IMG/VR virus record: IMGVR_UViG_3300030060_005695
Source of the DNA: a virus
Length of the DNA stretch: 64,000 bases
Direction: 5' to 3' (one strand)
The position numbers and the translations under genes are program-made. Below are positions 13,614-48,050 of this stretch, piece by piece. The notes beneath the pieces were generated by a model that saw only the letters and a program-made list of their open reading frames with translations, ran no database searches and was not told the origin of the DNA. Every line of letters begins with the position of its first letter. Within the stretch, counting starts at the first letter, position 1.

Positions 13614-16600
13614 ATGGGTAAATCATTTAGAGTAAGGACAGATGTTAGAGTTGGTGGAGCAAAAGACAAGAATGTAACTTTTGAACTCAGCCAAAACTTT
13701 GACTTACTTGAAATTCTTAGTCTTTCATTAACACAACAAGATGTTTATACACGTATGTGTGCAGATTTTGGTGTAGTTGTTGGTAGGGTTATAACTAACG
13801 GAGGATTCGGAATACCAAACGCCAAAGTATCTATATTTATCCCACTAACCGAAGAAGATGAACAAAACCTCGTAATAAAAGAACTTTATCCCTTCAAAGA
13901 ACCCTTTGACGTAACTGAAGATGGTAAAAGATATAATCTATTAAGTAGCGAACCAAACTTTGACTGTCATGTTACAGTTGGTAGTTTTCCTACATTAAAT
14001 GATGTTTTAAACAAACAAGAGGTAAAACACGTGTACGATAAGTACTATAAGTATACGGTTAAAACTAATGAGTCAGGTGACTTTATGATATATGGTGTTC
14101 CAGTAGGGGACCAAACTATCATCATGGATGTTGATGTAAGTGACATAGGTTGTTTTTCTTTATTACCAGAAGATTTTAAGATAAAAGGATTTCCAGACTC
14201 TGATTTTGATGGAGCAAAATTTAGAGATGATATAGTTATAGACAGCCTACCTCAAGTACTAAGTCAACAAAAATCTATAGATGTTAGACCTTTTTGGGGT
14301 GACGAAGAATTTTGTAGAGCGGCAATAACTAGGGTTGATTTTGATTTAGGACAAACAGGGTTTAAATTAGAACCTAATGCTGTGTTTATGGGTAGTACCG
14401 CATCTGATACTGACAAAGATTCTGTAAATAAAAACTGTAGACCAAAAGCAGCAATGGGTGAACTATGTAGTCTAATATCCAAACCAGGGATAATAGATTG
14501 TATAAGGTATACCCCATTTTTCCAAGATGACCCAAATGCTTACCCCGCTTATACAGCAGGAGGGTGGGGTGCACCTCTAGGTGGAGAAGTTCCAATACTT
14601 GAAAGATTTTACTTACCTAATGGGGGTAGGGTAATTGACGATACAGGTTCTTTCTTAGTCCACGTACCAATGAATTTAGATTATATGACAACTAATGAAT
14701 TTGGGGAAATGGTACTTTCAGATGACCCAAGTATAGGGGTACCTACTAGAGCGAGATGTAGATTTAGAATAAGACCTGAACAAGCAACGGGAGGAGCAAG
14801 ACAAAGAAGAATAGCTAGTTACCTAGTACCTAACATCAGGGAATTTTATGACCCATGGGCAGGTGACGATAATGGGGATTGGCCAGGTATAGACCCTTCT
14901 TCTTACGCTTTTTCTGTAAATTATAGTGACTACAATCCTTGGGCACAAAGAAATTTAATGCCTGCAGCAAAAGATGTTTTTTATGACATGACATTTAACA
15001 GGGTATATACTTTTTCACAATTTCATGACCATATTAAACATGGTGGTAGAAGAGAATTTGTGGGTATAAAAAATATATTACCTGAAGCGGACCAACAATG
15101 TGCTACCACAGCAATGTTTTTCCCAATAAATAGTGCGGTAAGAGCTCCTAGTTTAATGGTATTCCTTTGGATGTTCCTTATAGATTTTCTAGGGATGATT
15201 TACATGTTCTTAACAATACTAATATCAACACTAGCTGTATTCTTAAGCTTAATACTGGGGGTTATATTATTTATTATGTGGTTATTATGTTGGCTTTGGT
15301 GTGCAATATATTGTATTCGTATCACTCTTTGGGGTTTTACAATATTAGATATGGCTTCCCTAATTGGACCTAATGGTGCACCACCAGAAGAATGTGGACA
15401 AATTTGTATTAGTGGTCCTAATTGTTTTGGTTGTGCTACTGATTGTAGGTATTTTGGTTTAAGAATGGGGTTTGTATTGTTTACTTTAAGACAAACAAAA
15501 TATCCTGAGTGTGAAAAATGTTTATGTAGGACTATGGGTGATATGGCAGTAACAGATTCTCTTATATACCTAGCCTCACAATGGCCTTGCCCTGGTTCAT
15601 TACCATGGGGAGCATCCGGTAATACCACGTCAACTTCCTCATCAACATGTGTACCACAATGTCCACCAGGTAATGGTGCTACTGGTGATGACTTTGGTGG
15701 TAAATGGGAACACGATTGTTGTTCCGAAAGTGACGAAACAAGAGTTTGTTGTCCAGACCATTATGGTTTTAGGTCGGATGATGTCAATGACCCCCAAACA
15801 TCAGGTACTACAAATGATGGGGTTGCGGGTGGTGGCTGCTATGTAAAATTAATATGTTTTAGCCCAGCTTGTATCGGAGCAAACTACAATCTTAAAGTTT
15901 TAATAGAATGGACTAGAAGGGAAAAAATAGCACAAGCATTGTGTAATGGTGTTATGAATTATTTTTGGGAAAATAGTTGGGTAAGTGGATTCTTATACCA
16001 ATTCCAGTTTAGAGCTAAAGTAGAGTATGACCCAGCAAATGATACTTATGCCACAAATTCAACGTGGTGTAAAAAATTAACCTACCTACACCCAACAGAA
16101 CATGCTTTCTATTATAGGTCAACCCCTTTCCAAGTTAGTGGTATCGGTGTAAATCAAGGTAATTATATTGGTGATACTGACGGAGTTTATAAACCATGGT
16201 ATCAGTTCTGGGGTGGTAACAACACAAGTGATATGCATGGTAAAGGTGATATGGATAGACACATACTATTCCCAACGACAATGGTAGATATGGGTTCCAG
16301 AAATCAATGTATACAACAAATCTGTATGGACCCTAATTATGTTAATGAATGTTCAGTTACTGACCAGATAGGTAGTACAACATTCCAAGACATTACAGAA
16401 CTTGTTTCTGACACCTATAACCTTAAAATGCAACAACCACTAGCTTCAATGTCTACTTTCTTCCCACGTCCAGAATACGAAATTGGTGGTGATGTCGCAC
16501 AAGCACTTATGCAAAACTGTATGTTAGGTGTGGTAGGGTATGAAGCTAATGTAGGTACAACAGCTTGTGAATGTGACTACCAACTTAATATATCTACAAC

Positions 16601-17270
16601 ACCAACAAATGTGGCACCAAATAGTGGATTAACATACCCATCACCAAATTTTGTTGGAGGTACATATGTACCAAATGCACTTAATGTAAATGACATAAAT
16701 GACCCAGGAAACTTTACACACACTCTTTTATGGGAACCACTATTATTTACTGCTTCCACTCAAGTGATTATGAATGGTCAAGATTTGATAGATTGCTTAA
16801 CAATGGAATTATCCGCATCCAGTCAAAATGTTCCATTTTATCCATGGCATTTGGATAATGTTAGTTCAACCGCTACCGTAGGTGGTCAACCATACGGAGG
16901 TTGGGGTACAGTTTGGAATGATTGGTTAGGTACTACTGGAGAATATAGATATGCATTTGGTATACCAGGACCAGCAATGTCTATACTACCAGCAATATCA
17001 TTTGATGAAGAAGACGGTTCGGTACTACATCCAGCACCGGCATCTGCACCATATGTGAGTGACGGGAACTTCCAACACTATATGGGTAACCCACCATTTA
17101 CATTTGCCGGTAATAATTATCCTGTCATGAATGGTACTATTCCAGACAGTAGGTCTTATGTGTTCTCTCAACCACTATTTTATTATTTTGGATTAAGACC
17201 AGGTGCTACATCATTTAACACCTTTGTGAGAAAATACGTTGATGAAGAATTAGCTGATACAGTAATATAA
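13614..17270 (+). CDS. Large putative virion/baseplate-associated protein with carboxypeptidase-regulatory-like N-domain, long hydrophobic segment and Cys-rich regions
   Basis: GVVVGRV....GFGIPNAKVSIF, TVKTNESGDFMIYGVPVG; hydrophobic run about aa 514-585; C-terminal YYFGLRPG; position in baseplate operon. Confidence 0.6.
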   Translation: MGKSFRVRTDVRVGGAKDKNVTFELSQNFDLLEILSLSLTQQDVYTRMCADFGVVVGRVITNGGFGIPNAKVSIFIPLTEEDEQNLVIKELYPFKEPFDVTEDGKRYNLLSSEPNFDCHVTVGSFPTLNDVLNKQEVKHVYDKYYKYTVKTNESGDFMIYGVPVGDQTIIMDVDVSDIGCFSLLPEDFKIKGFPDSDFDGAKFRDDIVIDSLPQVLSQQKSIDVRPFWGDEEFCRAAITRVDFDLGQTGFKLEPNAVFMGSTASDTDKDSVNKNCRPKAAMGELCSLISKPGIIDCIRYTPFFQDDPNAYPAYTAGGWGAPLGGEVPILERFYLPNGGRVIDDTGSFLVHVPMNLDYMTTNEFGEMVLSDDPSIGVPTRARCRFRIRPEQATGGARQRRIASYLVPNIREFYDPWAGDDNGDWPGIDPSSYAFSVNYSDYNPWAQRNLMPAAKDVFYDMTFNRVYTFSQFHDHIKHGGRREFVGIKNILPEADQQCATTAMFFPINSAVRAPSLMVFLWMFLIDFLGMIYMFLTILISTLAVFLSLILGVILFIMWLLCWLWCAIYCIRITLWGFTILDMASLIGPNGAPPEECGQICISGPNCFGCATDCRYFGLRMGFVLFTLRQTKYPECEKCLCRTMGDMAVTDSLIYLASQWPCPGSLPWGASGNTTSTSSSTCVPQCPPGNGATGDDFGGKWEHDCCSESDETRVCCPDHYGFRSDDVNDPQTSGTTNDGVAGGGCYVKLICFSPACIGANYNLKVLIEWTRREKIAQALCNGVMNYFWENSWVSGFLYQFQFRAKVEYDPANDTYATNSTWCKKLTYLHPTEHAFYYRSTPFQVSGIGVNQGNYIGDTDGVYKPWYQFWGGNNTSDMHGKGDMDRHILFPTTMVDMGSRNQCIQQICMDPNYVNECSVTDQIGSTTFQDITELVSDTYNLKMQQPLASMSTFFPRPEYEIGGDVAQALMQNCMLGVVGYEANVGTTACECDYQLNISTTPTNVAPNSGLTYPSPNFVGGTYVPNALNVNDINDPGNFTHTLLWEPLLFTASTQVIMNGQDLIDCLTMELSASSQNVPFYPWHLDNVSSTATVGGQPYGGWGTVWNDWLGTTGEYRYAFGIPGPAMSILPAISFDEEDGSVLHPAPASAPYVSDGNFQHYMGNPPFTFAGNNYPVMNGTIPDSRSYVFSQPLFYYFGLRPGATSFNTFVRKYVDEELADTVI

Positions 17271-19054
17271 TGAGTAACGAAAAAAACATAAGAATTGTAA
17301 GAGGTGAAGCTAGATTTGCTGGTTCACCAAATAACGACGTGCAGTTACAACCATTTTTAGAATCTACACAAAAACAAATACATGAGGGGGATAGAAATTT
17401 AGTTTTGGACCTTAGAGACCAATTTGATTTTGAAAGGGCTTATTCAACACAATATAGGTTATATGGAAAAATAGATATACTTTACAATAATATAATTAGT
17501 GGGAGTACTCAGGATACTACATTTATGAGGTCAATGTACTTTATTCCAGATTTTTTGGGTTGTCCACAAACAGCAGGTGTACCACCAACTACCTGCTCGG
17601 GTTTACCACCAGCTAGTACATTTACAATAATACCACCTAAAAGATATGGTATTTTTGCAAGTCAAGCGGGTTGGGAACCACTTTTAGCACATCAAGATAA
17701 TTGGGTACAATATATATCTTATGTTAACGATGCAGACTCCAATCAAAGAATGATGTACTATACCGACTATTCTACGAATTCTGGTATGCAGTTTGTATCG
17801 GGAGATGGTATACCTTTTATACCTATAACAACCAATACAGATGGTAAGGAAGTTTTACAAATAATTACACCAGTAAGACACGGTGTATTACCAGGAGAAT
17901 ATATAGAAATACAGTCAGGAGCTACTACAATGGGTAGTGCAAATCTAATGACTAATGTTACTATTCCAGTAACCTTCCCAAGTCCAGCAGGTCCACAAAC
18001 TATATTCAAAGTAGATTATTTGGGTAACGGTTTGGAAAATTCAGAGGACTACGTGATGAATATTACAACAGTTGGTCTAGACGTAACATCAATACCAGCA
18101 AATCCAGTGGGTACACTTAAAAGAGTAATTAATCCAGAAAATATGTTGGAAACAAAATCTGAATATTATTGCCAAATACATAAGTTAATAACAAACCCAA
18201 ATGACCTTACAGTAGATAAAACAGGGTTTGAAAGAGGAATATATAATAAAAGAGGTAGGGTATTTCCTAGAAAAAGAACACCAGATTACATACAAAAATC
18301 TGTACTAAACCAAGCCTATGATTCATTTTTATGGAATTGTAATTATAATATTAATAGTGATGACTACTATGACCAATTTAATAGACCATTAACTGAATTT
18401 TATTTAACAATTTTAACTACAAATAGAAATCTCATATGGGATTGGAATCCGGGAATCAATTCTCCAGCAGGTTATGGTTGGGGTTGGAATTTTAAAAAGA
18501 ATGGTGTTGTGGACCCATTTGTGGATAATGGGACATCACCAGTTAATTTAACACAAACTGGAAATCAGGGAGTTAATCCACTACCACTTAGTGGTTCTAC
18601 ATTTAGGGGTGCTTTTGCTGAGTATAATCCATTTGAATTAAAAGAAAGGGTAATTTCTGAAATAGGACATTCACTAAAATTTAATAGGAATACTATGTAT
18701 AAAGTAGGGGGTACACCAGGTTATGATTTTGTAGAATCTATATTTAAATACAACCCACACCACAAAATTCCTATAAGAAAATTCTCAAATTATATAAGTT
18801 ATAATGATAGTCTGTTTACATCACCCCAGTATGCTGTTTATTCTTTATCAGAGGAAACATTTAGGTGGAGAGAAATTTTACCGGTAGAAGCTTATGAGGA
18901 TGGGGATAATGGTGTGAGTTATCCTTATTTAAATGATGCACACTACCCATACCATAATTTAGAATTTAAAATAGAGGCTGTAGGACCAGCATTAATCCCA
19001 CTAACCTCAGGAACAATAAGTATATTAACTGAATACACAGATGGCTGTCAATAG
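17270..19054 (+). CDS. Putative structural protein
   Basis: 594 aa, coupled to neighbours in the baseplate operon. Confidence 0.55.
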   Translation: MSNEKNIRIVRGEARFAGSPNNDVQLQPFLESTQKQIHEGDRNLVLDLRDQFDFERAYSTQYRLYGKIDILYNNIISGSTQDTTFMRSMYFIPDFLGCPQTAGVPPTTCSGLPPASTFTIIPPKRYGIFASQAGWEPLLAHQDNWVQYISYVNDADSNQRMMYYTDYSTNSGMQFVSGDGIPFIPITTNTDGKEVLQIITPVRHGVLPGEYIEIQSGATTMGSANLMTNVTIPVTFPSPAGPQTIFKVDYLGNGLENSEDYVMNITTVGLDVTSIPANPVGTLKRVINPENMLETKSEYYCQIHKLITNPNDLTVDKTGFERGIYNKRGRVFPRKRTPDYIQKSVLNQAYDSFLWNCNYNINSDDYYDQFNRPLTEFYLTILTTNRNLIWDWNPGINSPAGYGWGWNFKKNGVVDPFVDNGTSPVNLTQTGNQGVNPLPLSGSTFRGAFAEYNPFELKERVISEIGHSLKFNRNTMYKVGGTPGYDFVESIFKYNPHHKIPIRKFSNYISYNDSLFTSPQYAVYSLSEETFRWREILPVEAYEDGDNGVSYPYLNDAHYPYHNLEFKIEAVGPALIPLTSGTISILTEYTDGCQ

Positions 19055-19988: not shown

Positions 19989-22900
19989 ATGGAAGTATAC
20001 AAATATAGAATAAAAAGAAATAACCCTAGTGTTTATTTTACAGTACCTTGTACAGGTGGAACCAATTTCTACCCTATTAATACAAGTCCTAACTGTTCAG
20101 GATTAACAATGTACAACTCTACATTTAGTCAAGTACAGGACGCTTTACAAGGTGACATGAATAACTTCCCAACAGAACTAACCGGATGTTCGTCAACAAA
20201 TCCATGTATCCTGTTAAATGATACTACTACTATGCCAGTAATGGGTGCACCACCACCATATGGTAATGTACCAACATTAAATCAACCATTTTGTTTAGAT
20301 GTGGAGTCTCATCCTTATGTTATATTTGCTGGGTTAAATTTATACCAATCTGGGGTAATGACATTTACTGGTGAAAGTTACGACGATTTAATAAGTGTGT
20401 TTTCTTTAACAAATTCTACACTCTCACAACCATTAAATTCCCAAACTAACGCACACCTAACACCAAACACAATATCTTGTTTTTGTCCACCACCTGTTTT
20501 TAATGACTTACATCAAGTTCCAGTTTTTTTAGACCAAGATTTTAATGATATAGGGCATTACGATATTTGGGACGGAAATTTGGGACAAAAAGATATTTTT
20601 TCTAATTTTGTAGTTACCGCTACTACAGCTATGGGTAACCAGATACAAATTTATAATACCACAGATTTTGGTTACTATAAGAGTTATCAGAATTCTCCTT
20701 ACACTATAAATTGGGGTGACTGTCCTTGTGATTGTCCAGTTCCGCCATGTACCAATGCATTTGGTGACCCTTGTTGTGAAACTTTACAATTCCCTAACTT
20801 AACAAATCCTGTACCACACACTTATGCAGGTGTAGGTACACGAAGAATTACCATAACGCATGAAAATGAGTGGGGACCAACATCAGTATCTCAGGCTATA
20901 ACAGTACCCTTTATGCCTTATAATACATTACAAGCTTCTGGTGGTATACCACCTAGTAATGTACCTGTAGTAGGTCCTAGTGGACCAATAGGTACTAATA
21001 CATATTTTGGAGCTTATCCTTTTTCACCTCTAGATTCTGGTACTGACATCTTACAATATAGTGGTATGTCCCCTATATTTGGTGGTGGTAATAACAGTAA
21101 CTGTTTTGATGTTACAGGTAACACACAAAGTTTATTAGGAGCATTTCAATCGTACACATCATTACAAACCGGTAACTTACCTCCCGGATATCAAATAAAT
21201 GTAGATGTACCCTTAATGGGTGAAGTAATAAACCCAATAACCAATCAAATAGAACAGGGAGTTATGGGTAGGATTACTGTGGAAAATACACAATATACCG
21301 CTTACACAATTAGTATAGGTACTAACACACCAATAACATTTTATGATTTTAGTAATGGTGTTACTTTATACGAAGCTACAAGTTGTGGTTTAGATGCTTT
21401 TGCTTTTGGTGCTTTTGATTGTGTAAAATGTGAAATAGGTGATTGCACTTACTGTGAAACAAAAGATGAATATATAGATAGGGTAACAAACCTACCACAA
21501 CCAATAAGTTTTAACCCAATGATTAATACTAATTGGGGTGAATGGTCCGCAACAACAAATTATGTTAAAGGAGATATAGTATTCGACTCAACCTGGGGTG
21601 AGTGTTGTTGTTATATGGCAGTACAAGATATAAATCAGACAGGTGGTACTATAGACCCTTGGGCTGGTATAAAACCAACAGACTTAGTACAAGGAGTTTG
21701 GTGGAATAATGGACAACCTACGGAACATATTTGGGAGGCTTGTACCCCAGAATGTGAAGCATGTCCAGAGTTTACATCCATACCTTGTTATGACCCAACC
21801 AACACTTGGAACGCTTATCCAACTATCTCACCAGTAGGTCCAGCTGGAGTATATAGTAATGGTAATGTATATACTACAGGACAATTTACCTTAGGTCAAT
21901 GGGGTAATTGTTATAGAGCTTTGTCGGGTGGTACTTTACCACCACCATCTGGGTTAACCAACAATCAATACTGGGACTATATTGGATGTTCTAGTTGGGT
22001 GTGTCCACCAGTATCAGCTTTAACAGCATCTAGTCTTTCATGTCAACTAGTACCTGGTACGGGGTCAACTAGTACGGGACCTTGTACAAGTATAGGTTTT
22101 GCCACATTTGAAGATTGTATGGATACTTTTTACTTAGGTAATTGTTGTGAAGATAGATATATTTGTATCGACCAATATTCCTGTCAAGGATGTTCAGCTA
22201 TGACATCAGCACACCCACTATACAATGACCCTAGTGCATTAGACCCAACACAAGGTCCAGTTTTTGATAATGAACTTGATTGTTTAGCGTGGTGTGAACC
22301 ACCAGCGTATTCTTGTGTTACTAGTACCCCAGCAAGTTCTAATAATTGTTGTGGTTTACTTTCATGTACTGATGACCTTATAAATGGTACAACATTTTAC
22401 ATAGATAATGTGTATCCTGTAATGCAAACTTTACCACCTACACCAGCACCTTTTTTAAACTTTATAGACTATGCGGCATTTACCTTTGAATTATTTTTTG
22501 ACCCTTATAATATAAATGATTGTAACGCTGGATTTACAAACTCAGCAGGAACCTATACAGGTTGTTGTGATTATACTATGTGGGTTTATAATTGTGAAGA
22601 AGGATGTGTACCGGTATTTGTTGGTACAGGTTATACAACTGAAGCTGACTGTTACGCTGCTAACCCACAATGGTTAGGTGTAGGTAACACCCCTTGTGGA
22701 TACAAGTGTGACCCACTTTGTGACCCCTGTCAACCTTGTTATACATTAAATTGTGGTTACCCATATACACCACAAGGATTACAAGACTGTGAAATGGTAT
22801 GTTCTTGTGCGACAGAATGTTATGTTTGTGACTGTTTAAATGTTATAAACGGTTCAAACGTACCATGTTACCCATATCAAGACCCAGTTACAAATGCTCT

Positions 22901-29331: not shown

Positions 29332-29360
29332 GTGTTATGATATTTATTATAAAATAAGTA

Positions 29361-29582
29361 ATGGCATTAACAGAAGTAAAAACAGTAGGATGTATTTTAC
29401 CCCTAACAAAATTAGAGGTATTAATGAATGTTTGCCAAAGACCGGAAGTAAGGTCAAATATATTTATTGAAAGAGGTAAAATAACCGTATTTGAAAAACC
29501 ACAAAGATTAGGGCAAATAAATAGTACTGGAGATTTAGAACTACACGGGTACGGATATTATAAAATAGAAAAACAACCATAA
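29361..29582 (+). CDS. Small structural protein, possibly the detached C-terminal domain of the 19989 gene family
   Basis: 73 aa, PEVRSNIFIERGK...RLGQINSTGDLELHGYGYY; has its own TATTTAT motif at 29341. Confidence 0.6.
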   Translation: MALTEVKTVGCILPLTKLEVLMNVCQRPEVRSNIFIERGKITVFEKPQRLGQINSTGDLELHGYGYYKIEKQP

Positions 29583-33500: not shown

Positions 33501-33703
33501 ATAATTTATTATGTATAAAAGGTTTGAAAGAATTAGGTTTTGATGACCTAAGTTGGTTAGAAAACTACACTTTAACCCCTACAGAAAACACACAAACTCT
33601 TAGAAGTGGTGTAGGTAGTAGTATAAACACAAATAGACCATCTAGTCCTTCTGGAGGAATGTCAACAGGAGGAGGTATGTCTAGTGGTGGTGGTGGATAT
33701 TAA
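30512..33703 (+). CDS. Baseplate wedge protein, T4 gp7 / P2 gpI-like core
   Basis: IPNELIKNFAKTLGW...YRRILLNTAYLFKSKGTRKSIEFLL motif; Gly/Ser tail ending GGGGY. Confidence 0.65.
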   Translation: MASNRFRYPPAPNNGGDTFSDFLVGNQFMGSQQMTLGNFYTQPSYNQPNTPEYNLGTFSNPITLESLSNESLALAQKLTSNSLEVFVNNDMSEISSFVLYGSLKKRLAVATQNVVNFFPAALFIDGVNINLVSGNTTAYDILYDYSTEETTFKTNVNTLSNPFSLEFTTNGDLLNGVISKEQILNNFNTFGVSADTLLNIADGTVAPIRNITQHFKKYALSFSGQIGEKEYIVKEFKPQTTTTDYIEFTVEGNPFNLPLTGGTAVTSTTETFYIKPTQNQTEEEFKNLDNVERFLVNRDITPIYTSVFQVVKETTNGVKYYDKVKQTWPLEDNVNIDIISDRYTNYLIKLADLGDEIDKEKTNLVSRFLTSPQLKEFDGTNQHVEKTLQIYGRSFDDIKTFVDGIAYMTNVTYDGKNSIPNELIKNFAKTLGWSTPSTLNNTTFLDSVLGVSVPEYSGTSMSQTPAELDIELYRRILLNTAYLFKSKGTRKSIEFLLTLLGAPEALVEFNEYVVIAGAPINMNPGMRFEWVQTAAGEVPSYKKIQNRFDYQWEKISGGSYTTETLNYSIPFNQYYVSTGTTFNPFILDDYPIDEQGYPTKPRLTESYFFQRGAGWFEMTEEHKSDLVLNLSASTLTGCTPNAVTKYAEFTWGGFWTMGQYSNLVKAPYLDRFRRFPHMSFGFGLTRINDDKKSWVYKEGKQDRDYSFNNRDAYYQTLNEKLVLNVKNVDLSLNIGQGLTYDVWQQSVKSDCFFSGGTLPSPYPRPGGVWDSTNPKINAKTLDFKTFKNNFWKVFIDAKNRMTINDGKTGGYPTLQQIYLDYLHKNCGENNQYTYQKMIDYAQALGDYWIKIVEQMVPTTTLWTSGVKVENSAFHRDKFVYKCFSVSGDPLQSVYSMTFTTSASGYTGYPWPLFSNSARMMSMPTPPQSGTTYYNNLFSGSGTIPLSSYANSYNINNQGRFTGSPLLSKETNKLSNSFQTNRTKFTSKAVFTKKGSTDNLLCIKGLKELGFDDLSWLENYTLTPTENTQTLRSGVGSSINTNRPSSPSGGMSTGGGMSSGGGGY

Positions 33704-40600: not shown

Positions 40601-41237
40601 ACAATTTTTTACAATGCCAGCAACTGTTAGTACAACAGATACTGAAATGATATTTGAGGAAAATGGTTATTACTATATTAATTTAGAAAAACAATCATTT
40701 GGGGGTGTATCATTAGCTATAAATGGTGTCACTCAAGGAGAAGGTTTAAGTGGGTATACTAAAGTAAGTGACACAAGAATACAATTATTGTCTTCTACAG
40801 ACACATATCAATCAGGTGATACTTTTGCGTTATTTTACAAAACTATTTACATGTTAGCGGGTCTTAGTATGAATAAAGAACCACAAATACCTATAAATTA
40901 TTTAAAAGATAAAGCATTAATTGATGTTGTTAGAGTTAGATTATTTAATGATGACGGTAATGTAGTACAACAATTAAGTAAGACAATACCAGCCGAAAAA
41001 GTAGGTGCTGTTTATTGTTCTTTCACATTATTACCACCAGAACCAGGTAATTACAAATATAGAGTAAGTATCACCAGACAATATCCTTTATTAAATGGTG
41101 AAAGTGTATATTCTACAAGTCAAACGGATGTAGTTCCATTTGAAATAACAAGAAATGTATTTTATTCCCCTTCAGGTATAAATCCACGTAATGATACGGG
41201 TCCAGGTGGAGCTGAGGGATTTAGGGGTGGATATTAA
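37689..41237 (+). CDS. Tail appendage/adhesin-like protein with N-terminal SprB-like repeats and a lectin-like region
   Basis: CNGSI...APYLVTWSG...ISNLCADDY..TITD; second repeat FSGIENGLYTVTV; DNDSL motif; VNG...DY beta-sandwich repeats; ends GGY. Confidence 0.6.
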   Translation: MSISYVGNMKLNGYKITNTLSGSCNGSIIGANISASTNSAPYLVTWSGTNTLYTADTFDISNLCADDYVATITDYTGATATTTITLSAFTVPSIEASLTNDDCVLDPNKKGEITVSDSTTTTPTYTYELRKNNKLVDIYYGNTGNTRHAFSGIENGLYTVTVMEEKIIDFDTRPSQSGCTAYNFNDNGANYGWLLPNIIGNTWENFLPNAPFHLTFKNGWGPATGGTQIYYETGILPDGTIDSDNPYVWFYTGDTLTRKTDLGKNWYLGVSALTKEEGDNNVGPVMARTAANIGYFYYNSVINKFEYLWPTYGAVISWITYDPRQNYGIPGNPRSSNLTGATSGFSIANVSAIDVTIDPGSGTVEQFGGIYPDSGTNGKFYASSTANNASVGGMLSLCSYNNYSWETTFNATSDNDSLYIFLAAFRDDDAKYGPSGFTYSLYLQANGTSGKITIGHNAGSSGFGFKRDGYQFRDCFQGACTTVNPNAGKVSIANFDGYLTPFSAGTGAWQAMGAVRVKINRSGTTGEHFHIQFTETMGTGASATRAIGQTNGYNPRYDINFNLLDRTTWSGNSFSAYDEYDWLQRYDLCKFLGSKRIGYGQSSQPNLSFYHITFTGNPSQQEILPPDCGNSLGPANTVTITATTGTTTNVIQTNDTSSYSSTEPNVPKVNPRVNVSLQTMPSPSVSIVGLSKPNVKLSTQIGNKPALSVYNASQGGGGEIKVYYGGNNTDMLFGNMYPKFRIYPYITEEDRIATSPVYEAIFDTLPSYYDETSQSTIISGSTFIPWSGFCTGSSWEYIVRPSYLFKDKTSPNDVWIDTAFYPPQELVSTSQDFYMALVKDPPVPSLSLDDFRLPFSVPQMMIDTTVVTNMPSPTTPQFSSATYRHEIRSARPSVPLVTVNGIVVSEGMSGVTAVDSLTDAGGTDVSNYHTILPTGDYKLSLGNRAVTFFPETVQNGDQLQFIYDAAGGSWAQFFTMPATVSTTDTEMIFEENGYYYINLEKQSFGGVSLAINGVTQGEGLSGYTKVSDTRIQLLSSTDTYQSGDTFALFYKTIYMLAGLSMNKEPQIPINYLKDKALIDVVRVRLFNDDGNVVQQLSKTIPAEKVGAVYCSFTLLPPEPGNYKYRVSITRQYPLLNGESVYSTSQTDVVPFEITRNVFYSPSGINPRNDTGPGGAEGFRGGY

Positions 41238-41279: not shown

Positions 41280-43688
41280 ATGAGTTATATAATTAAAAAC
41301 AGTACACAAGGAGCGATAGTCGCTCGTCTTACCGATGCCGGTAGAAGAAAACTATCAGAAGGAAAATTAAACATCGGACTTTTCCAAATAGGTGATAGTG
41401 AAGTTAACTATGATTGTTACGCGCAACAACCAGCAGCAAGTCCAGGTTTATTTATATTACAGGCAGAACACAATGCACAGAACTTAAACCCTATGCCTGA
41501 AAAAAATAAAGGTCATGTGAAATACCCATTAGTGGGTGGGTTAAGTAGTGGTGATACCTTTGGCCCAACTATACCACAACACCAACAAAACGATGTTTAT
41601 AATACTGCAACTCTAAGAGGATTTTTTACTGGAACAACTGATAATACTGCTGCAGGACAAGGTTCTTATACTTATTTTTCTGCTAATACTGGTGGTTCTT
41701 ATACATTATCATCAGATTGGTTATTTTGTACCTCTGCAATGACAGGTGGAAGTCAGATGTTGTTACATACAGCTTATACTATATGTTCTTTACAACAATA
41801 TTCACCAGTAATTGGTGATTTATTATCGGTTACGTATGAATTTTCAGGTGCTAACTGTTCACAACTTAACTATAGTGCAGCTTCTACAACATTATTCTAC
41901 CAAGTGGTAGCTGGTAATAGTAATTCCGCACAGACCAATGCGGCACTATATCTCACAGTAGATAGGGCACTCCCTAATTTTAGTGGGGTGACCACTCAGA
42001 TGGATGATGTTTGTATGAGAGTACGAGTATATCCAGCATCATCTGCTAATTCTACTACCCTATCTAGTATATATAATACCGCTAGTACTATTAATTGTTG
42101 GTGTGACGATACATTATCTTTTAACAATTGTTGTGACACATCTAACTCAGATGTTAAAATATGGAATATGAATATAAATTGGACACATCAAGTAGCGGGA
42201 GTAGCATCACCAACAAATGGTGTTTTTGTAGGGGTGGACAATTATGGTTCTAGTGGTTATTGTGGGTCCAAGGAATATTTTGGTTTAGAAAGTAACGATG
42301 GACAATCTTTTACGAATCAAGTTACTGATACTTACCACCCTTCAGTTATTGGTGGTACTTTTTACTTTGATTCTTTTTATAATACAAGAGTGGTTTTACC
42401 AGAAGACCAGAAATGTGCTGGTTTCATACACTACACAAATAATTCTACTACAGATTTTTATGGTGAAAAATTTGCCATGAAAGATACTACCATGACTACT
42501 ATTGGAGAAGCTAAAAACTTTAAATTACATTTACCTTGGTTAATGTGGCATAAAAAGAGTTCACAGGGTTCAGGGGTAGGAACTGGTGCGGGTAATGAAA
42601 CCATATTAGGTCAAACTTTTTATGTAGACCCACAATCTTACCCAGATGTATTTCCAGTCAATCCTCACTTAATGTTATCTAGTAAAAACATAAACATGAA
42701 TGATGATGGTTTAAGATATTATCATTTGTGGGATGACAATATAGGTAGTGGAGCAACACCTAATAGAGTAGGTAAAGTATTCCCAGACTATAAAATGATT
42801 GTTATAGATGATGAAGAATTATTAGCTGCTATGTCTTATAAATCTAATAGAAGTTGGACTTTACCAGCACCTAGAACCCAAAAAGTTCCAGCTGGTACAG
42901 GATGTCCTACTGGTGCGTGTGCTACATTTGGAGCGGTACAAAATCCGGGGGATACACTATATATGACTTACTTATTTGAAAATAATACAGTTGGTAATGC
43001 TGGAGTGGGTACTGGTTTACATTGTAATTATTATGTTAATGAAACTTTAGAACCAGGTGAAACTGCATTTGATGTTGGGATTACCTTAGGTGCAGAATTC
43101 CCTTATTTAAGAGATAATTTTGCTCTAACTGGTACTGGGTGGGAAGCGGACACATTACATATATTATGGCAAATAGTACCAAACGGACAAAAAGTTTCTC
43201 CACATGGTTGGAACATGAAAGATATTACAGGTGACATCCCAGGACACACAGTAGGAACTAAAATAGCTGCAACTAACATCATAAATCAAACATTTTTTCT
43301 AACTGGAAATGACACAGACCCAACGTGTAATCCAACACCTACAAATTATAGTTTAAATGATTATATCACTATACCACAAAATGGTGATTTAGCGGGATTG
43401 AATTTTGGTGACGAATATTTCTTTTATGGTAGTATAGAAACTGATATTATGGCAACCATATACGAAATGAAACACGTGGTACAGTTAGGTGCTAATCAAT
43501 ACGTTACCTCCACCAACCCAACATGGTTAGATTATACAGCCGTTAATGGTTACACCAATCCAAGGTTAACCGAAATTGGTTTATATGATAATGAGAACGG
43601 GTTCCCAGACTTAATGGCTATAGCAAAATTGCAGTCACCTGTTGAAAGAACAAGTACTCAGCAATTTACTATATCTATTGATTTTTAA
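41280..43688 (+). CDS. Tail-collar-fibre-like (DUF3751-like) structural protein, N and C halves separated by a large insertion
   Basis: N-terminal LTDAGRRKL...FQIGDSEVNY and C-terminal TEIGLYD...LMAIAKLQSPVER. Confidence 0.55.
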   Translation: MSYIIKNSTQGAIVARLTDAGRRKLSEGKLNIGLFQIGDSEVNYDCYAQQPAASPGLFILQAEHNAQNLNPMPEKNKGHVKYPLVGGLSSGDTFGPTIPQHQQNDVYNTATLRGFFTGTTDNTAAGQGSYTYFSANTGGSYTLSSDWLFCTSAMTGGSQMLLHTAYTICSLQQYSPVIGDLLSVTYEFSGANCSQLNYSAASTTLFYQVVAGNSNSAQTNAALYLTVDRALPNFSGVTTQMDDVCMRVRVYPASSANSTTLSSIYNTASTINCWCDDTLSFNNCCDTSNSDVKIWNMNINWTHQVAGVASPTNGVFVGVDNYGSSGYCGSKEYFGLESNDGQSFTNQVTDTYHPSVIGGTFYFDSFYNTRVVLPEDQKCAGFIHYTNNSTTDFYGEKFAMKDTTMTTIGEAKNFKLHLPWLMWHKKSSQGSGVGTGAGNETILGQTFYVDPQSYPDVFPVNPHLMLSSKNINMNDDGLRYYHLWDDNIGSGATPNRVGKVFPDYKMIVIDDEELLAAMSYKSNRSWTLPAPRTQKVPAGTGCPTGACATFGAVQNPGDTLYMTYLFENNTVGNAGVGTGLHCNYYVNETLEPGETAFDVGITLGAEFPYLRDNFALTGTGWEADTLHILWQIVPNGQKVSPHGWNMKDITGDIPGHTVGTKIAATNIINQTFFLTGNDTDPTCNPTPTNYSLNDYITIPQNGDLAGLNFGDEYFFYGSIETDIMATIYEMKHVVQLGANQYVTSTNPTWLDYTAVNGYTNPRLTEIGLYDNENGFPDLMAIAKLQSPVERTSTQQFTISIDF

Positions 43689-44470
43689 TGGGGTATTTAG
43701 GGATTTACAATAATACATTATCTGGTAACACATTTAGGTTATATCTTTCCGATTATGGTAGAAGCGTTATTGGTACAGGAAATGGTTTAATGGACGCAAT
43801 AGCACAATTTGGTTTGGGTGATTCTGATATTGATTATCGTAGATTTGTTGGTAGTGGTAGTTGTAGTGGTCAAACAGGTTTAAGTGCTTTTACAGGTTCA
43901 TGTTTTTATGATTTACCAGATGCAAGAGGTGGAGAACCAACAAGTACTAAACAAAGTTTTGGTACACTACCCTCGATTTTTAGAGGAGCAAGAACTAATA
44001 TTAAATCAGGTGTAGTATCTTTATTAGATACAACCCTAGGTGTTGGACCCACGAATACTAGTACACTTTGGGCAAAATACAAAAAACCAGAAAAACCGGA
44101 AGAAATAGAAAACCCAACCAGTGGAAATTTTGACACATGTTGGGAAGTAGGTCACAACGTGACAGAATTCTACCCCTCATATTGTGTGAGTTGTGCTGAC
44201 TTTAACGGAGATGGTATGGTAGATATAAAAGATTTAATAGTTTTTTTAAATTTAATAGGTACTGAAGCTAAAGTAGGTAATGAATTAATTGGGGATTTTA
44301 ACGGTGACGGTATTGTAGATAAAAAAGACTTGATGATTTTTATGGAATGTTTAAGGTATAATAATAGAAGTATAGAAAGTTATTGTAAAAATAAAGAAGT
44401 TTATTGTTTATTATGTAAACATTTAGGTGGTGAATCACCATGTAATGGTGATTGTTTAAAATGTGTGTAA
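43688..44470 (+). CDS. Tail-collar N-half paralog with C-terminal dockerin/EF-hand-like duplicated Ca-binding motif
   Basis: MGY...LSDYGR...FGLGDSDIDY; DFNGDGMVDIKDL and DFNGDGIVDKKDL; Cys-rich end. Confidence 0.65.
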   Translation: MGYLGIYNNTLSGNTFRLYLSDYGRSVIGTGNGLMDAIAQFGLGDSDIDYRRFVGSGSCSGQTGLSAFTGSCFYDLPDARGGEPTSTKQSFGTLPSIFRGARTNIKSGVVSLLDTTLGVGPTNTSTLWAKYKKPEKPEEIENPTSGNFDTCWEVGHNVTEFYPSYCVSCADFNGDGMVDIKDLIVFLNLIGTEAKVGNELIGDFNGDGIVDKKDLMIFMECLRYNNRSIESYCKNKEVYCLLCKHLGGESPCNGDCLKCV

Positions 44471-44522: not shown

Positions 44523-46394
44523 ATGGGTTATATAAGTGCACAAACAGCAACAACATTGACAGTTCAGTTAACTGAACAAGGTCGTCAATTAATGCTATCA
44601 ACAGGTAGTTTTATAAGTTTATTTGATAAATTTGTTATTTCAGATGGTAACATTGATTATAGAAATACACAAGCACATGGTGATAGTAGTAGCACCGCTA
44701 ACAATTCTGCACAATTAGGTTATATACCTGATGCAACAGGACAAGATAACAATTATAAGAACTCTATAAGTAATGGGTATACTATAAATAATGCAGTATG
44801 GCAAACACCATCCTCAAATAAAGTATTCACCAGAGATAAAAAATATGTTTCAGTGGGAGTTAGAGGAACAGATAACCTAGTAAAATACTATAGAAATGAA
44901 GTTGAGATAGATGTGTATTTGTCAGACTACTATGTTCTATGTAAATTATTAGCAGCCAAATATATAGACGACCACAAAGACATCCTATCTTCTGCAGCAA
45001 CAACAATCTCAACAGCTACAACTAATTATTTTGAAAATACATTAAATATTCGTAACAATAGTGATTATACTAATTTCTTAAATGAGTTATCACAACATGG
45101 TGTAGGTCAATATATTGACTATGTAGATTCAGTTAAAATATATGACGGAACTAATTTTACAACAAGTGGTATAAAATTAGTACCATTAAAGGATAGTAGT
45201 TATTATAATGCACTTGCAATGGCTGGGGGTGCATTTATGAATAGAGGACAACATACTGGTATTGATTTTACGGGTACAAACTTAAAAGGTTTACAACTAC
45301 CATCACCATTCTCTTTAGTATTTTCTCCTGGATTAGACGAAAATGGTACAAGATATTTAAGGGGTGCTGGGAGATATGGAATTGGATTCGCAGCATTTGA
45401 TGTTGGGTATTTAAATTGTGGAGGAATGTCAACATGGAACCAAAACGGACAATCTTACCCAACATTTAATATGAATTCAACACAAAACGGCTGGGTAAGT
45501 GATTTAGCAAATGAAGTAGAACCATTAATAGGATTTGTAAGTACTATAGATATGGAAAGAGAAGTAAGTATAACTGAAAGTGGGTTCAACAGTCCAGCTT
45601 ATAAAAATATAAACATAACTATACCAACTACAAGGTTAGTGATTAACGTGACAAATTCTAATTATTCACCAACGTACTACCCAATAAAACTAAAAAGATT
45701 AACACAAAATCAAGGTGAATATGTAGATATTAATAAAGATAATAATAAAGGTATTCGTATAACCTATACCACACACCCATCAGATACGTTTGGGTTATTA
45801 ATGGGTAGTATGGAATATACTGCTAATTGGAATAACAACGAACAAGGACTTAAAAGTGGTGGAGCAGACTTCTCACTATATCCATCTAAAGATAATGGAT
45901 TAAGTATAGTAGCTGGTAACGTTGTTGCGGAAACAGACCCATATTACACATTATTTACTAGACAAGCAAAAATGGCGGATAATATATTTACTACTATTGC
46001 TAGACAGAATAATAGTTATTGGAAAACTGATACTTATAGTGGTGGTTATATAGCTGGGTTAAGTGGTAGTGGATTAACTTCATATAATATTTCAGTACCA
46101 GTAAGTTGGGAAGTACAATCTTCAGAACAAAATGGTGTAGTACCATGTAAATTAACTGTTAGGTTTAAATTTAATAAAGCAGCACTATCACCATCTTTTG
46201 CTTACAAAAACGTTTCATCACAAAATTATTATAGAATGTACGATAACGCAACATTCCGTTTTTATGGTGAAGCGGGTGGAGACAGAAGTTCGTACTCAGA
46301 AGACCCTAGAGGGCATAACAGTTCAAATCCGTGGCAAACAAGTGGGGGTAAAGCTCTATTCTTTAAAGTTACAAGCGGACAAGTAATAAATTAA
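44523..46394 (+). CDS. Tail-collar N-half paralog, putative structural protein
   Basis: MGY...LTEQGRQLM...FVISDGNIDYR...GYIPDATG. Confidence 0.55.
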   Translation: MGYISAQTATTLTVQLTEQGRQLMLSTGSFISLFDKFVISDGNIDYRNTQAHGDSSSTANNSAQLGYIPDATGQDNNYKNSISNGYTINNAVWQTPSSNKVFTRDKKYVSVGVRGTDNLVKYYRNEVEIDVYLSDYYVLCKLLAAKYIDDHKDILSSAATTISTATTNYFENTLNIRNNSDYTNFLNELSQHGVGQYIDYVDSVKIYDGTNFTTSGIKLVPLKDSSYYNALAMAGGAFMNRGQHTGIDFTGTNLKGLQLPSPFSLVFSPGLDENGTRYLRGAGRYGIGFAAFDVGYLNCGGMSTWNQNGQSYPTFNMNSTQNGWVSDLANEVEPLIGFVSTIDMEREVSITESGFNSPAYKNINITIPTTRLVINVTNSNYSPTYYPIKLKRLTQNQGEYVDINKDNNKGIRITYTTHPSDTFGLLMGSMEYTANWNNNEQGLKSGGADFSLYPSKDNGLSIVAGNVVAETDPYYTLFTRQAKMADNIFTTIARQNNSYWKTDTYSGGYIAGLSGSGLTSYNISVPVSWEVQSSEQNGVVPCKLTVRFKFNKAALSPSFAYKNVSSQNYYRMYDNATFRFYGEAGGDRSSYSEDPRGHNSSNPWQTSGGKALFFKVTSGQVIN

Positions 46395-46832: not shown

Positions 46833-48050
46833 ATGGGAAAATTTAAAAAAATAAAAACAAGTGAAAAAAGAATAGAAGCGGTTCTAGTACCTTATAATGC
46901 TTCTGCAAGTACTGGATGGAACTACATAAGTGGGTCAAGCTTACCATTCACAATAATACAAAGAAACCCTTCAAACGGTAGAGCTTTTTCTAATCTATAC
47001 TCTTCCTTTAATATGCCAGCAAATAGTGGGGCAACAAATTCATTCCTATCAACTTGGGCAAATACAGGTTTTAGTGGACTTTCACAAGCACAAGCAATAG
47101 TAGCTGAAATTCCAAAAAGTGAATATGGGGTATTAATAGATGGTAGAACATTAAAACTATTAGTACCTAAAGGAAATCCTGGAGCAGAAGGTAATTATGA
47201 GTTGTATAGTTCTTACTACAATCCAATGCCAACCTCATCCGATAATTCTGATGAGGGTGAATTTTTTGGTAACCCAAAAATATCTGGTAACATAGTTGGT
47301 AATCCCGGACTACCATCAACTAATGTAGCCTTTTTGTTTTGTGATGAAATACTAGGACCTTCCTTATCAGCATCTAACACTAATATAACAAGCTGGTCAA
47401 GTGGGTGGGTTTCAGGAACCACACCAACAGGATATCCTAACGCTGGTGTAGATAATTTTAGATTTACAGAAACAGTCTCATCATCTAAAACACCTAAAGC
47501 TTATGCACAAGTACAAGACCGTCCAGTAGGTATAGCTTATCTAGATAAAGGATTTGCTGTTATAACGGACCCAGGTATTGTTGCTAATTTTAATTATAGT
47601 GGAGCTTCTACTGGAGGTACCTTAGCGTATCCATTCCATAAAGGAAACCCTAACGCGAATACAATGTCATTTGCATCTGCAGCTACTCAGATATATTTTA
47701 CTGGTTCTAGTTCTGCAAATTGTACTTTTTATTCTTTTGAAAAAGAATATAGAATAGTGGTAGATATTGTTGCTGCGGCAGGTGAATTTTATGTTACAGA
47801 AAATCAAACAGCTTCACCAGCGGAAACACCTTATTATGGTGCGGGAGGTGATGACACAGGAATACAATTCCAAACTCCATTTGGTGACGTACATAACATA
47901 TGGGATTTATCAGATGTAAGTTCTTCTTATATAACAGAAATAGGACTATATGACTCATCAAACCGACTAATAGCTGTTGCTATTCCAGATAGACCTATAG
48001 AAAAAGCAAAAAACACACCCGTAAACCTACAACTAGTACTTACTTTCTAA
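46833..48050 (+). CDS. Structural protein carrying the tail-collar C-half motif
   Basis: IPKSEYGVLIDG, VGIAYLDKGFAVIT, C-terminal YITEIGLYDSSNRLIAVAIPDRPIEK. Confidence 0.6.
   Translation: MGKFKKIKTSEKRIEAVLVPYNASASTGWNYISGSSLPFTIIQRNPSNGRAFSNLYSSFNMPANSGATNSFLSTWANTGFSGLSQAQAIVAEIPKSEYGVLIDGRTLKLLVPKGNPGAEGNYELYSSYYNPMPTSSDNSDEGEFFGNPKISGNIVGNPGLPSTNVAFLFCDEILGPSLSASNTNITSWSSGWVSGTTPTGYPNAGVDNFRFTETVSSSKTPKAYAQVQDRPVGIAYLDKGFAVITDPGIVANFNYSGASTGGTLAYPFHKGNPNANTMSFASAATQIYFTGSSSANCTFYSFEKEYRIVVDIVAAAGEFYVTENQTASPAETPYYGAGGDDTGIQFQTPFGDVHNIWDLSDVSSSYITEIGLYDSSNRLIAVAIPDRPIEKAKNTPVNLQLVLTF

Follow-up and report, generated by a model that had tools for sequence, protein, structure and literature searches.

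The general O-glycosylation sequon of the Bacteroidota, D-(S/T)-(A/I/L/V/M/T), is used in the periplasm and on exported proteins. In the chlorovirus PBCV-1, glycans are attached to exterior insertions of the capsid proteins at a sequon that is specific to the virus, and the enzymes are encoded by the virus itself (PMC9617893). Among the phages, mycobacteriophages have been reported to have glycosylated capsid and tail-tube subunits (PMC12619734, citing Freeman 2023). Phage-encoded glycosyltransferases decorate these virion proteins, and these accounts propose shielding of the particle as the role of the glycans (PMC12619734, PMC13313380). A short motif of Ser/Thr type with a different use, T-A/G-X-T/N, is the ice-binding motif of FfIBP, a DUF3494 protein of Flavobacterium frigoris (bioRxiv 10.1101/2023.03.06.531300).

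Here we analyse a four-residue motif in a 64,000-nucleotide stretch of DNA from an uncultured marine phage (the window, IMG/VR record IMGVR_UViG_3300030060_005695). An earlier, sequence-only reading had described a pervasive (S/T)-(G/A)-x-(T/S) pattern in the virion proteins encoded between 13614 and 48050 and had suggested that it is a tag for glycosylation. From its predicted proteins the virus is assigned to the T4-like jumbo myoviruses, on the basis of PF04965 and phrog_6 in the window and of PF07068 and the phrog_23/PF04984 sheath in its relatives; CheckV completeness corresponds to roughly 320 kb. The features of the window given with coordinates below are on the plus strand, and ORFs are named by their start coordinates.

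A refined four-residue motif in the virion genes

All 14 peptides quoted in the sequence-only reading are present verbatim, and its estimate of well over 100 occurrences is correct. The ORFs of 13614-48050 contain 126 [ST][GA]x[ST] sites against 45.9 expected from whole-protein shuffles, the control that had been proposed, and against 48.7-53.3 expected from local shuffles in blocks of 40, 20 and 10 residues (z 9.8-12.7 across the shuffle controls). Six permutations of the same residue classes occur 48-64 times, close to expectation. These local shuffles and permuted patterns rule out composition and local low complexity as the source of the excess. A DNA-level origin is also rejected, because codon usage at the motif equals the background and the excess is seen in the coding frame (90 versus 22.1) while the other five frames are at expectation; selection at the protein level, as had been claimed, is upheld.

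Analysis of the individual positions reveals that Thr at +3 carries the enrichment. There are 98 [ST][GA]xT sites against 25.5 expected (z 15), whereas [ST][GA]xS is not significantly enriched in these ORFs (28 versus 22.8). Neither Asp/Asn at position 0 ([DN][GA]x[ST]) nor Asn at +3 is enriched. Positions -1 and +4 are hydrophobic, K, E and D are strongly depleted around the sites, and Asp is depleted at -1. The refined motif is Phi-[ST]-[GA]-x-T in an uncharged context. Chaining of sites at 3-residue spacing, noticed earlier by eye, amounts to 15 cases against 1.3 expected. In a scan of all inter-site spacings, d=3 alone is enriched (24 versus 5.1), which corresponds to overlapping tandem copies; nothing is seen at 15-25 residues, and rung periodicity of the beta-solenoid type is rejected for these spacings. 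A literature search for SGxT, TGxT and SAxT motifs returned nothing relevant. The motif excess is confirmed and is stronger than first stated.

Carriers and motif-free proteins

The gp25 gene (11193-11660; PF04965, 1.3e-11) and the gene of the gp6-like baseplate wedge protein (11662-13500; phrog_6 baseplate wedge, 8e-19) contain no sites. The rarity reported for this core is hence complete, and both proteins provide motif-free internal controls. Two ORFs after gp6, of 1218 and 594 aa (13614..19054), show a weak excess (4 versus 1.5 and 3 versus 0.9, p about 0.06 each); their orthologues in G002 have 5 versus 1.2 and 4 versus 0.6. The largest carrier is a giant, Cys-rich virion ORF of 2902 aa (19989..28697) with 30 [ST][GA]xT sites against 7.5 expected (Poisson P 5e-10) and no Pfam or PHROG match. 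It is followed by a conserved pair of ORFs of 210 and 306 aa (28699..30506) with 0 sites each and no PDB sequence match. The 210-aa member has an atlas feature score of 0.95 to NTP_transf_2 clusters at a low shared-feature count, which makes its NTP_transf_2-like nature a lead only, and the 306-aa member is without an assigned family.

The next ORF, a distal tail/baseplate protein of 1063 aa (30512..33703), is motif-rich (10 versus 2.3). Its family of 22 members shares 7 conserved core sites, to which many lineage-specific ones are added (mean 11.9 sites per sequence). The sites of the 1321-aa ORF (33709..37674; 8 versus 2.6) are all located within residues 495-780, and its K/E-rich N-terminal 490 residues contain none. 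The densest carrier is a 1182-aa chain of Ig-like beta-sandwich domains (37689..41237; 20 versus 4.0, P 9e-9); of its 24 sites, 18 are conserved in half or more of the 24 homologues. Class conservation in this ORF is 0.82-0.89 at motif positions against 0.61-0.66 for other S/T/G/A residues. In the ORF of 802 aa, both termini of which are tail-collar-like (41280..43688; 9 versus 2.5), residues 89-270 hold 12 of 13 sites, the densest cluster. Its C-terminus matches (hhalign 94%) the tail-collar-like C-terminus of another motif-rich ORF, of 405 aa (46833..48050; 5 versus 1.2 for the refined and 10 versus 2.7 for the broad motif). The 260-aa ORF (43688..44470; 3 versus 0.6) contains a Cys-flanked loop, residues 59-71, in which four motifs overlap, and its C-terminus is dockerin/EF-hand-like (Pfam Dockerin_1, 1.6e-6); beyond this match, Pfam and PHROG searches of all carriers gave nothing. 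A 623-aa ORF (44523..46394) is moderately enriched (5 versus 1.4, empirical p 0.006).

Outside the 13614-48050 block, the ORFs contain the broad motif 10 times and the refined one 3 times against 7.1 expected, so the proposed contrast between structural and non-structural proteins holds. Active avoidance in non-virion proteins is, at most, a weak and non-significant trend in the window and in G002 (29 versus 38.4 in the latter, z -1.6). Three small ORFs within the block (28699, 29586 and 46400) have no sites. The statement that the motif is confined to virion proteins is better narrowed to those parts of them which are peripheral or added on.

Conservation and turnover in related phages

The motif is present in each of 22 related phage loci from metagenomes, the most distant at 27% identity, with 1238 sites against 377 expected; the homologues were sampled in general marine surveys, TARA among them. 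No excess is found in the syntenic genes of the outgroup phages immuto, Mel-JY01 and LR756508, which are of similar GC, nor in the T4 fibres gp34-38 or the E. coli proteins YeeJ and Ag43. These comparisons rule out that tail fibres or beta-rich adhesins show the excess as a general feature, and the motif is restricted to one clade.

In the structures of T4 gp18 and gp23, variable insertions face outward. In the tail sheath of the relatives, the variable insertion domain, at about residues 100-430, has 67 sites (18.1 expected) and the conserved core 0 (4.4 expected). The gp23-like capsid protein is similar, with 11 sites in its variable insertion (3.5 expected) and 0 in its core (1.1 expected). 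For these two proteins of the relatives the suggested association with outward-facing domains is supported, and the motif appears to be restricted to exterior or insertion domains of virion proteins. Its accumulation has been independent in at least 12 unrelated protein families. In the distal-tail ORFs, no preference for variable over conserved segments was found, the excess being about fourfold in every tercile.

Across 40 core sites in 7 families, position 0 is S in 454 and T in 319 cases (D and N together only 10), +1 is G in 443 and A in 302, and +3 is T in 690 and S in 52. Positions 0, +1 and +3 are under purifying selection. A hydroxyl residue is required at position 0 and exchange between Ser and Thr is tolerated there, the pattern looked for in an O-glycosylation sequon. 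Sites turn over in three families while their density is maintained: lost sites are replaced nearby (28 versus 15.1), and lineage-specific gains keep the density up.

Candidate modifying enzymes

The enzymes proposed by the sequence-only reading are a DegT aminotransferase (PF01041, 2e-69) and a GT2 glycosyltransferase (PF00535, 7e-8, plus Glyco_transf_7C), encoded as a pair at 52806..55021. The DegT protein is nearest to PseC, yet far below the cut-off, and its relatives are taxonomically scattered with no Bacteroidota among them. The GT2 protein (53987-55021) has a single, marginal PDB sequence match, to beta4GalT7; of 5 long relatives that all have the motif, only 2 carry an orthologue of it. 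The clade at large is well supplied, with 3-4 GT2 genes per fragment in 5 of 5 long relatives, including a GT2 of about 270 aa, and DegT in 4 of 5. One relative carries a glycan cluster of about 17 kb with a GT2_5+GT4 fusion, methyltransferases, a kinase, a GDP-mannose dehydratase and a cytidylyltransferase. A PF13712 gene is present in 2 of 2 clade members tested and in 0 of 3 outgroups. The proposal of this particular pair is weak.

Aquatic phages often have GT2 genes, and such genes, other than that of the window, are also found in two of the outgroups that lack the motif. Co-occurrence of glycosyltransferases and motif is a single evolutionary event and therefore not a real correlation. 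The targets of the GT2 enzymes could be DNA or host polysaccharide. We know of no glycosyltransferase that reads Phi-[ST]-[GA]-x-T.

A putative modification sequon and its alternatives

The motif is clade-specific and order-specific and occurs in unrelated exterior domains, which points to a trans-acting reader. Because the clade has 3-4 GT2 genes and one relative has the large glycan cluster, the best reading is that the motif is the recognition tag of a clade-encoded enzyme, most likely an O-glycosylation sequon; we assign this a probability of about 0.4. The motif would be read by a phage-encoded enzyme acting in trans, most likely one of the cytoplasmic glycosyltransferases of the clade, and the hydroxyl at position 0 (or Thr at +3) would be O-glycosylated before or during assembly. 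The targets would be add-on domains that face outward on capsid, sheath, baseplate-periphery and fibre proteins, giving a particle coated with phage-made glycan that may serve in shielding, solubility or adhesion. By its residue tallies the motif seems to behave like a degenerate sequon, with Ser/Thr exchange at 0, Gly/Ala at +1 and Thr nearly fixed at +3, and the overlapping copies at d=3 are as expected if the +3 Thr serves as the next acceptor. Phospho- or nucleotidyl-linked groups may be attached instead, because the glycan cluster of the relative includes a kinase-like gene and the window an NTase-like one. The interpretation given in the sequence-only reading is partly supported: its computational predictions have held, and its choice of enzymes is the weak part. 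Several observations count against a sequon. The DegT/GT2 pair is not clade-universal, and GT2 genes occur in motif-free outgroups; the positional conservation of most sites in the families of ORFs 37689 and 41280, the hydrophobic -1 and +4 residues and the charge depletion also fit a framework beta-element; avoidance in non-virion proteins is weak, and the loop preference in the structural model described next is a mere trend.

Such a beta-element is the alternative that survives best, although we consider it unlikely. Phi-[ST]-[GA]-x-T-Phi would here be a strand-loop junction or short hairpin in fast-evolving all-beta add-on domains of this lineage, left unmodified and kept by selection on folding or stability. 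All carriers look all-beta, the excess is uniform over conservation terciles, and hydrophobic residues flanking small or hydroxyl ones fit cross-strand packing around a turn. The AF2 model of ORF 37689 (pLDDT 66; Foldseek top match GhpA, 9flp) is an all-beta chain of Ig-like sandwiches in which 16 of 19 confident sites have coil at +1 and the sites abut strands; that of ORF 41280, built from an 18-sequence alignment, is poor (pLDDT 43). The loop preference in the first, medium-quality model is a trend (p 0.09), and a sharp register of sites to strand starts is not significant (Fisher p 0.74). No site of this model forms a two-residue hairpin, the loops being of at least 5 residues, nor can every member of a chain at spacing 3 be a strand-loop junction. 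A turn with an obligatory Asx/ST cap or positive-phi Gly would tolerate D/N and disfavour Ala; the free Gly/Ala exchange and the exclusion of D/N at 0 and +1 are atypical of tight turns. Moreover, the grammar of such elements is universal, yet the T4 fibres, the three syntenic outgroups and YeeJ/Ag43 lack the excess; a universal structural preference is disfavoured because the motif is clade-specific.

It is improbable that the motif reflects cryptic common ancestry, namely a small clade-specific domain which was shuffled into many virion proteins and has diverged down to its key residues. Tandem homologous repeats can produce an order-specific excess of S/T/G/A patterns, as shown by [GA][ST]xT in YeeJ (z 5.3) and Ag43 (z 3.6), and mini-modules such as GTGGT[FY] recur in giant ORFs (the G002 ORF at 194122). 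However, comparison of the carriers by BLAST reveals no shared domain, and all-against-all hhalign of the family profiles, self-comparisons included, gives only the tail-collar termini and one weak 54-residue self-match, none of it a shared domain in motif-rich regions; these profiles are thin, with about 20 sequences each, which leaves some room for ancestry of this kind. Paralogy among the carriers is thus unsupported. The motif segments are without the detectable mutual homology of tandem-repeat domains of the YeeJ Big_1 type, and the YeeJ/Ag43 controls behave differently. No inter-site spacing other than 3 is preferred, and the two N-terminal sandwich domains of ORF 37689 carry their sites at positions that are not equivalent.

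A direct binding surface, in which Thr arrays with small neighbours would form uncharged patches for ordered water or ice, polysaccharide or marine gels and let virions stick to host capsule or particles, is also improbable: the near-identity to the FfIBP motif (bioRxiv 10.1101/2023.03.06.531300), the strong depletion of K, E and D around the sites, their exterior location and the agreement of the FfIBP phylum with the host phylum suspected from a Flavobacterium-phage relative speak for it, but the sites form no regular array, Asn at +3 is not favoured, neither DUF3494 nor any other Pfam match points there, and the survey origins of the homologues show no tie to ice.

The sequon reading may be extended, more tentatively, to the whole particle. 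A marine, probably Flavobacteriia-infecting clade of T4-like jumbo phages would then direct a hydroxyl-linked modification through its own sequon onto essentially every exposed virion component, that is capsid, sheath, baseplate periphery, fibres and the giant Cys-rich appendages, and the modification could be a phage-encoded methylated or amino-sugar glycan.

To our knowledge, glycosylated phage virions have been reported only for a few actinobacteriophages, without a defined internal sequon. If the sequon reading is true, no virus-specific code for O-glycosylation had been described before in a tailed phage, and the system would be the equivalent, in viruses of bacteria, of the N-sequon of the chloroviruses. 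Sequence data would then suffice to recognise glycosylated phage particles, by their more than 100 sites per genome, and there would be a concrete substrate with which to study the function of the many orphan glycosyltransferase clusters of aquatic phages. A further suggestion would be that large marine phages, like giant algal viruses, carry a cloak on their exposed surfaces, which could for instance protect them from grazers, host defences or adsorption to debris. Even a purely structural or adhesive motif would be unusual, since a dozen unrelated families of a single virus lineage have converged under selection on one four-residue pattern.

Comparison with known systems

The tetrapeptide described here is nearly the same as that of FfIBP, in which the motif lies on an exposed, uncharged beta surface of a Flavobacterium protein. 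In FfIBP, however, three copies are stacked on one face of a beta-helix, whereas here the sites are scattered without rung spacing, position 0 takes Ser as readily as Thr, and +3 does not accept Asn. In addition, none of the carriers matches DUF3494, and the modelled ORF 37689 consists of Ig-like sandwiches with no rung-spaced stacking.

Our motif resembles the Bacteroidota sequon, which occurs in hundreds of unrelated surface proteins of the suspected host phylum, in being short, degenerate and Ser/Thr-centred. However, the latter needs an upstream Asp, the residue depleted here at -1, and its system acts in the periplasm, whereas phage virions are assembled in the cytoplasm.

The mycobacteriophage glycans are reported at the C-termini of capsid and tail-tube subunits of siphoviruses. 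In contrast, the present virus is a T4-like jumbo myovirus with a dispersed, internal four-residue motif in more than 100 copies in the window.

PBCV-1 differs in that its glycans are N-linked to Asn in the virus of a eukaryotic alga and are proven by structure, whereas here the putative acceptor is a Ser/Thr of a tailed phage; the motif is also found in many virion components besides the capsid. The likeness to PBCV-1 lies in virus-encoded enzymes, here putative, in the location of the sites in exterior insertions, in the number and position of the sites, which vary among paralogues, and in a putative sequon which is unlike the cellular one.

Genome organization and phage clade

All long ORFs of the window lie on the + strand, with a GC content of 28–39%. 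Replication genes come first (gp32-like, 5'-3' exonuclease, DnaB-like helicase and ribonucleotide reductase, with a RecA-like match that is weak and under the Pfam cut-off), followed by gp25 (11193–11660, + strand, PF04965), a gp6-like wedge protein (11662–13500, + strand, phrog_6) and a 34-kb block of very large ORFs (13614–48050). ORFs of the block, named here by their start coordinates, give no Pfam or PHROGs match except for the dockerin/EF-hand-like tail of ORF 43688. Genes for a primase, PD-(D/E)XK nuclease, SbcD-like phosphoesterase, DegT, GT2, M23 peptidase, Rad50/SbcC-like ATPase and sigma factor are located 3' of the block. The closest named phages by gp6, at 27–28% identity, are Flavobacterium phage immuto, Microcystis phage Mel-JY01 and a 484-kb uncultured phage. 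Among IMG/VR contigs 22 are related, and the CheckV completeness of 34–77% for relative fragments of 128–246 kb suggests a jumbo-phage clade of roughly 320 kb, which encodes a gp23-like capsid protein and a sheath of 1130–1160 aa.

An order-specific motif in the structural block

The peptides on which the sequence-only reading based a Ser/Thr-rich motif are all found in the window, and the enrichment of [ST][GA]x[ST] that it proposed is borne out: the block contains 126 sites, against 46 in whole-protein shuffles and 49–53 in shuffles within 40-, 20- or 10-residue blocks (z 10–13). Six permuted patterns of the same residue classes occur 48–64 times in the block, which rules out local richness in Ser, Thr, Gly and Ala as the cause of the excess. 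With the first Ser/Thr taken as position 0, the signal is carried by Thr at position +3, as [ST][GA]xT occurs 98 times against 25.5 expected (z 15) and [ST][GA]xS 28 times against 22.8, while neither [DN][GA]x[ST] nor [ST][GA]x[DN] departs from expectation in the block. A preceding hydrophobic residue gives an observed/expected ratio of 4.1. Motif codons match background usage, in agreement with the varied codons noted earlier, and the excess is confined to the coding frame (90 against 22.1), the other five frames being at expectation.

All ORFs of at least 260 aa in 13614–48050 show a 2.7–5.4-fold excess, significant in eight block ORFs, with the exception of the 306-aa ORF 29586, which like the shorter ORFs 28699 and 46400 has no site. 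Outside the block the window contains 3 sites against 7.1 expected; two of these lie in the 846-aa ORF 70–2610, a probable virion protein with an M23/lysin-like C-terminus.

The same gene families carry the excess in 22 of 22 related loci (1238 against 377), extending to relatives at 27–29% identity with other gene architectures. It is absent from T4 gp34–38 and from syntenic baseplate/fibre regions of similar GC in three outgroup phages (immuto, 33 against 23; Mel-JY01, 11 against 9.7; LR756508, 5 against 4.7).

Anatomy and evolution of the sites

A profile pooled from 329 sites of the window and three divergent relatives is common to the Gly and Ala variants. An aromatic or aliphatic residue or Cys occupies position -1, and the stretch from about -2 to +6 is poor in Lys, Glu and Asp; position +4 is Phe/Tyr/Ala/Ser/Pro with the Gly variant and Ala/Gly/Ile/Leu with the Ala variant. 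Overlapping copies at three-residue spacing are abundant (15 chains against 1.3; 24 pairs against 5.1). Spacings up to 60 are otherwise unremarkable, and hence show no solenoid-like rung periodicity.

Homologues of ORF 37689 (n=24, 28–100% identity) all show the excess (z 4.4–7.7), and the motif persists at 18 of its 24 sites in half or more of these sequences. Class conservation in these homologues is 0.85, 0.89 and 0.82 at positions 0, +1 and +3, compared with 0.63 for other Ser/Thr and 0.61 for other Gly/Ala, and the x position is unconstrained. Residue tallies from 40 core sites in seven families are S 454, T 319 and D+N 10 at position 0, G 443 and A 302 at +1, and T 690 and S 52 at +3. 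The four-residue pattern is order-specific and under purifying selection at three positions, for a hydroxyl, a small residue and Thr. Families 30512, 33709 and 46833 keep only about half of their sites at conserved positions, yet their motif density is still 3–4 times expectation. Loss of a core site coincides with a non-core site at most 6 residues away in 28 cases against 15.1 expected, a number to which alignment slippage may add. The distal-tail ORFs show a roughly 4-fold excess alike in variable, middle and conserved terciles.

The hydrophobic flanks and this positional conservation would also suit a lineage-specific beta-structural element, which we consider rather unlikely, since Gly and Ala interchange freely, Asp and Asn are excluded, copies chain at spacing 3 and the outgroups are negative.

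Independence and structure of the carriers

Cryptic shared ancestry of the carriers is improbable. BLAST among them detects no paralogy, and all-against-all hhalign of family profiles of ~20 sequences, self-comparisons included, matches only short tail-collar-like termini (41280/46833 C-termini, 94% probability; 43688/44523 N-termini, 97%). The repeat proteins YeeJ and Ag43 of E. coli, used as a positive control for the effect of repeats, lack the excess (8 against 11.2; 9 against 5.2) and have a strong excess of another permutation, [GA][ST]xT, which we attribute to their tandem homologous repeats. A tail-collar signature (P2 gpH N-terminal, DUF3751-like) appears split across 41280–48050, with an N-terminal segment common to ORFs 41280, 43688 and 44523 and a C-terminal '...TEIGLYD...' segment common to ORFs 41280 and 46833.

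AlphaFold2 modelling of ORF 37689 on a 24-sequence alignment gives an all-beta multidomain structure (pLDDT 66) resembling chains of Ig/FN3/macroglobulin domains, with GhpA, the Aureispira grappling-hook protein, as best Foldseek match. In this model the sites adjoin strands and, of 19 confident sites, 16 have position +1 in coil. Significance is reached neither by the register to strand starts (p 0.74) nor by the coil preference over other Ser/Thr (p 0.09), and no site forms a two-residue hairpin. The model of ORF 41280 reaches a pLDDT of only 43. The first ~100 residues of ORF 37689 (37689–38228) resemble an SprB-type repeat of Bacteroidota gliding adhesins, which Pfam does not call; the pattern is C-x-G-S-I ... 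P-Y ... W-S-G ... L-C ... Y-x-x-T-I-T-D.

ORF 19989–28697 (2902 aa) is extremely Cys-rich, with many short [YF]-x-[ST]-x-x-[DE]-C...C(C) modules, often after TG or GTG. A second giant of this kind (2948 aa, recurring GTGGT[FY]) is found at 194122–202968 of G002, a related 210-kb metagenomic phage contig. In ORF 43688–44470, residues 145–218 of the C-terminal part match Dockerin_1 and EF-hand calcium-binding loops, and a 13-residue Cys-flanked loop of the N-terminal part consists of four overlapping motif copies.

Location on the particle

Scanning of the whole G002 contig reveals 175 sites against 90 expected. The excess sits in the distal-tail block, the sheath and four more large ORFs (one of 2948 aa, 36 against 11.7) and little else, the remainder having 32 against ~39. 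In five sheath orthologues, 67 of 67 sites fall in the variable insertion (~residues 120–425 and 720–765; 18.1 expected) and none in the conserved N-/C-terminal core recognized by the sheath PHROG (4.4 expected). Likewise, the variable insertion holds 11 of 11 sites of three gp23-like capsid proteins (3.5 expected), with none in the core (1.1 expected). The corresponding insertions of T4 gp18 and gp23 face outward. The sheath (1131–1159 aa; G002 96547–99942, L037:1547–4942, - strand, with orthologues at loci L049–L052) has a ~700-residue variable insertion between conserved N- and C-terminal parts, and the PHROG matches its last ~300 residues only.

Candidate modifying enzymes

The DegT/GT2 pair earlier proposed as possible modifying enzymes is real (DegT, 52806–53993, + strand; GT2 with a Glyco_transf_7C segment, 53987–55021, + strand), but the GT2 has an orthologue in only two of five long relatives. 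PseC is nearest to the DegT, yet far under the family cut-off, and the sole PDB sequence match of the GT2 is marginal (beta4GalT7, E 0.0055). The five long relatives each have 3–4 GT2-family genes, and four have DegT. The SbcD-like phosphoesterase (51212–51994) and Rad50/SbcC-like ATPase (55766–58093) lie ~3.8 kb apart (51212–58093). Between them are the DegT-GT2 pair, an antisense M23 peptidase and two small ORFs, an arrangement reminiscent of an sbcCD operon interrupted by a sugar cassette. The two closest "cellular" DegT relatives (L055 and L056, 57–60% identity) are located in a Promethearchaeota MAG (9-kb contig) and a Gammaproteobacteria MAG (154-kb contig); both contigs may come from phages of a related lineage and have been mis-binned.

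G002 has a ~17-kb glycan-biosynthesis cluster (117858–133486, L038) encoding a GT2_5+GT4 fusion, another GT2, a sub-threshold GT-D-like match, FkbM and three other methyltransferases, an APH-like kinase, DegT, GDP-mannose 4,6-dehydratase and an HMGL-like+cytidylyltransferase protein. Its DegT matches the C-terminal half of the profile only, and dUTPase and PhoH flank the cluster. The two clade members tested both have the GT2_5 family, and three outgroups all lack it; other GT2 genes are present in two outgroups. An alternative modifying enzyme could be the motif-free 210-aa ORF 28699–29331 of the structural block, which is conserved in related loci and starts 2 nt after the stop codon of the giant ORF. 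It has no Pfam, NCBIfam or PDB match and resembles NTP_transf_2 by language-model (Atlas) features only (score 0.95, low shared-feature count).

Interpretation of the motif

A dozen unrelated families have acquired the pattern independently, and it is limited to add-on or presumably exterior domains and to one phage clade. Taken together, the motif properties fit universal rules of protein structure poorly and a clade-specific factor that reads the motif well. There is a small chance that the explanation lies beyond those considered here. A direct binding surface akin to the ice-binding motif T-A/G-X-T/N of FfIBP has slim prospects, as rung periodicity and the DUF3494 fold are absent and Asn is rejected at +3. 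The most economical reading is a putative O-glycosylation sequon (probability roughly 0.4), suggested by the glycosylation genes of the clade and by the precedents of chloroviruses and mycobacteriophages.
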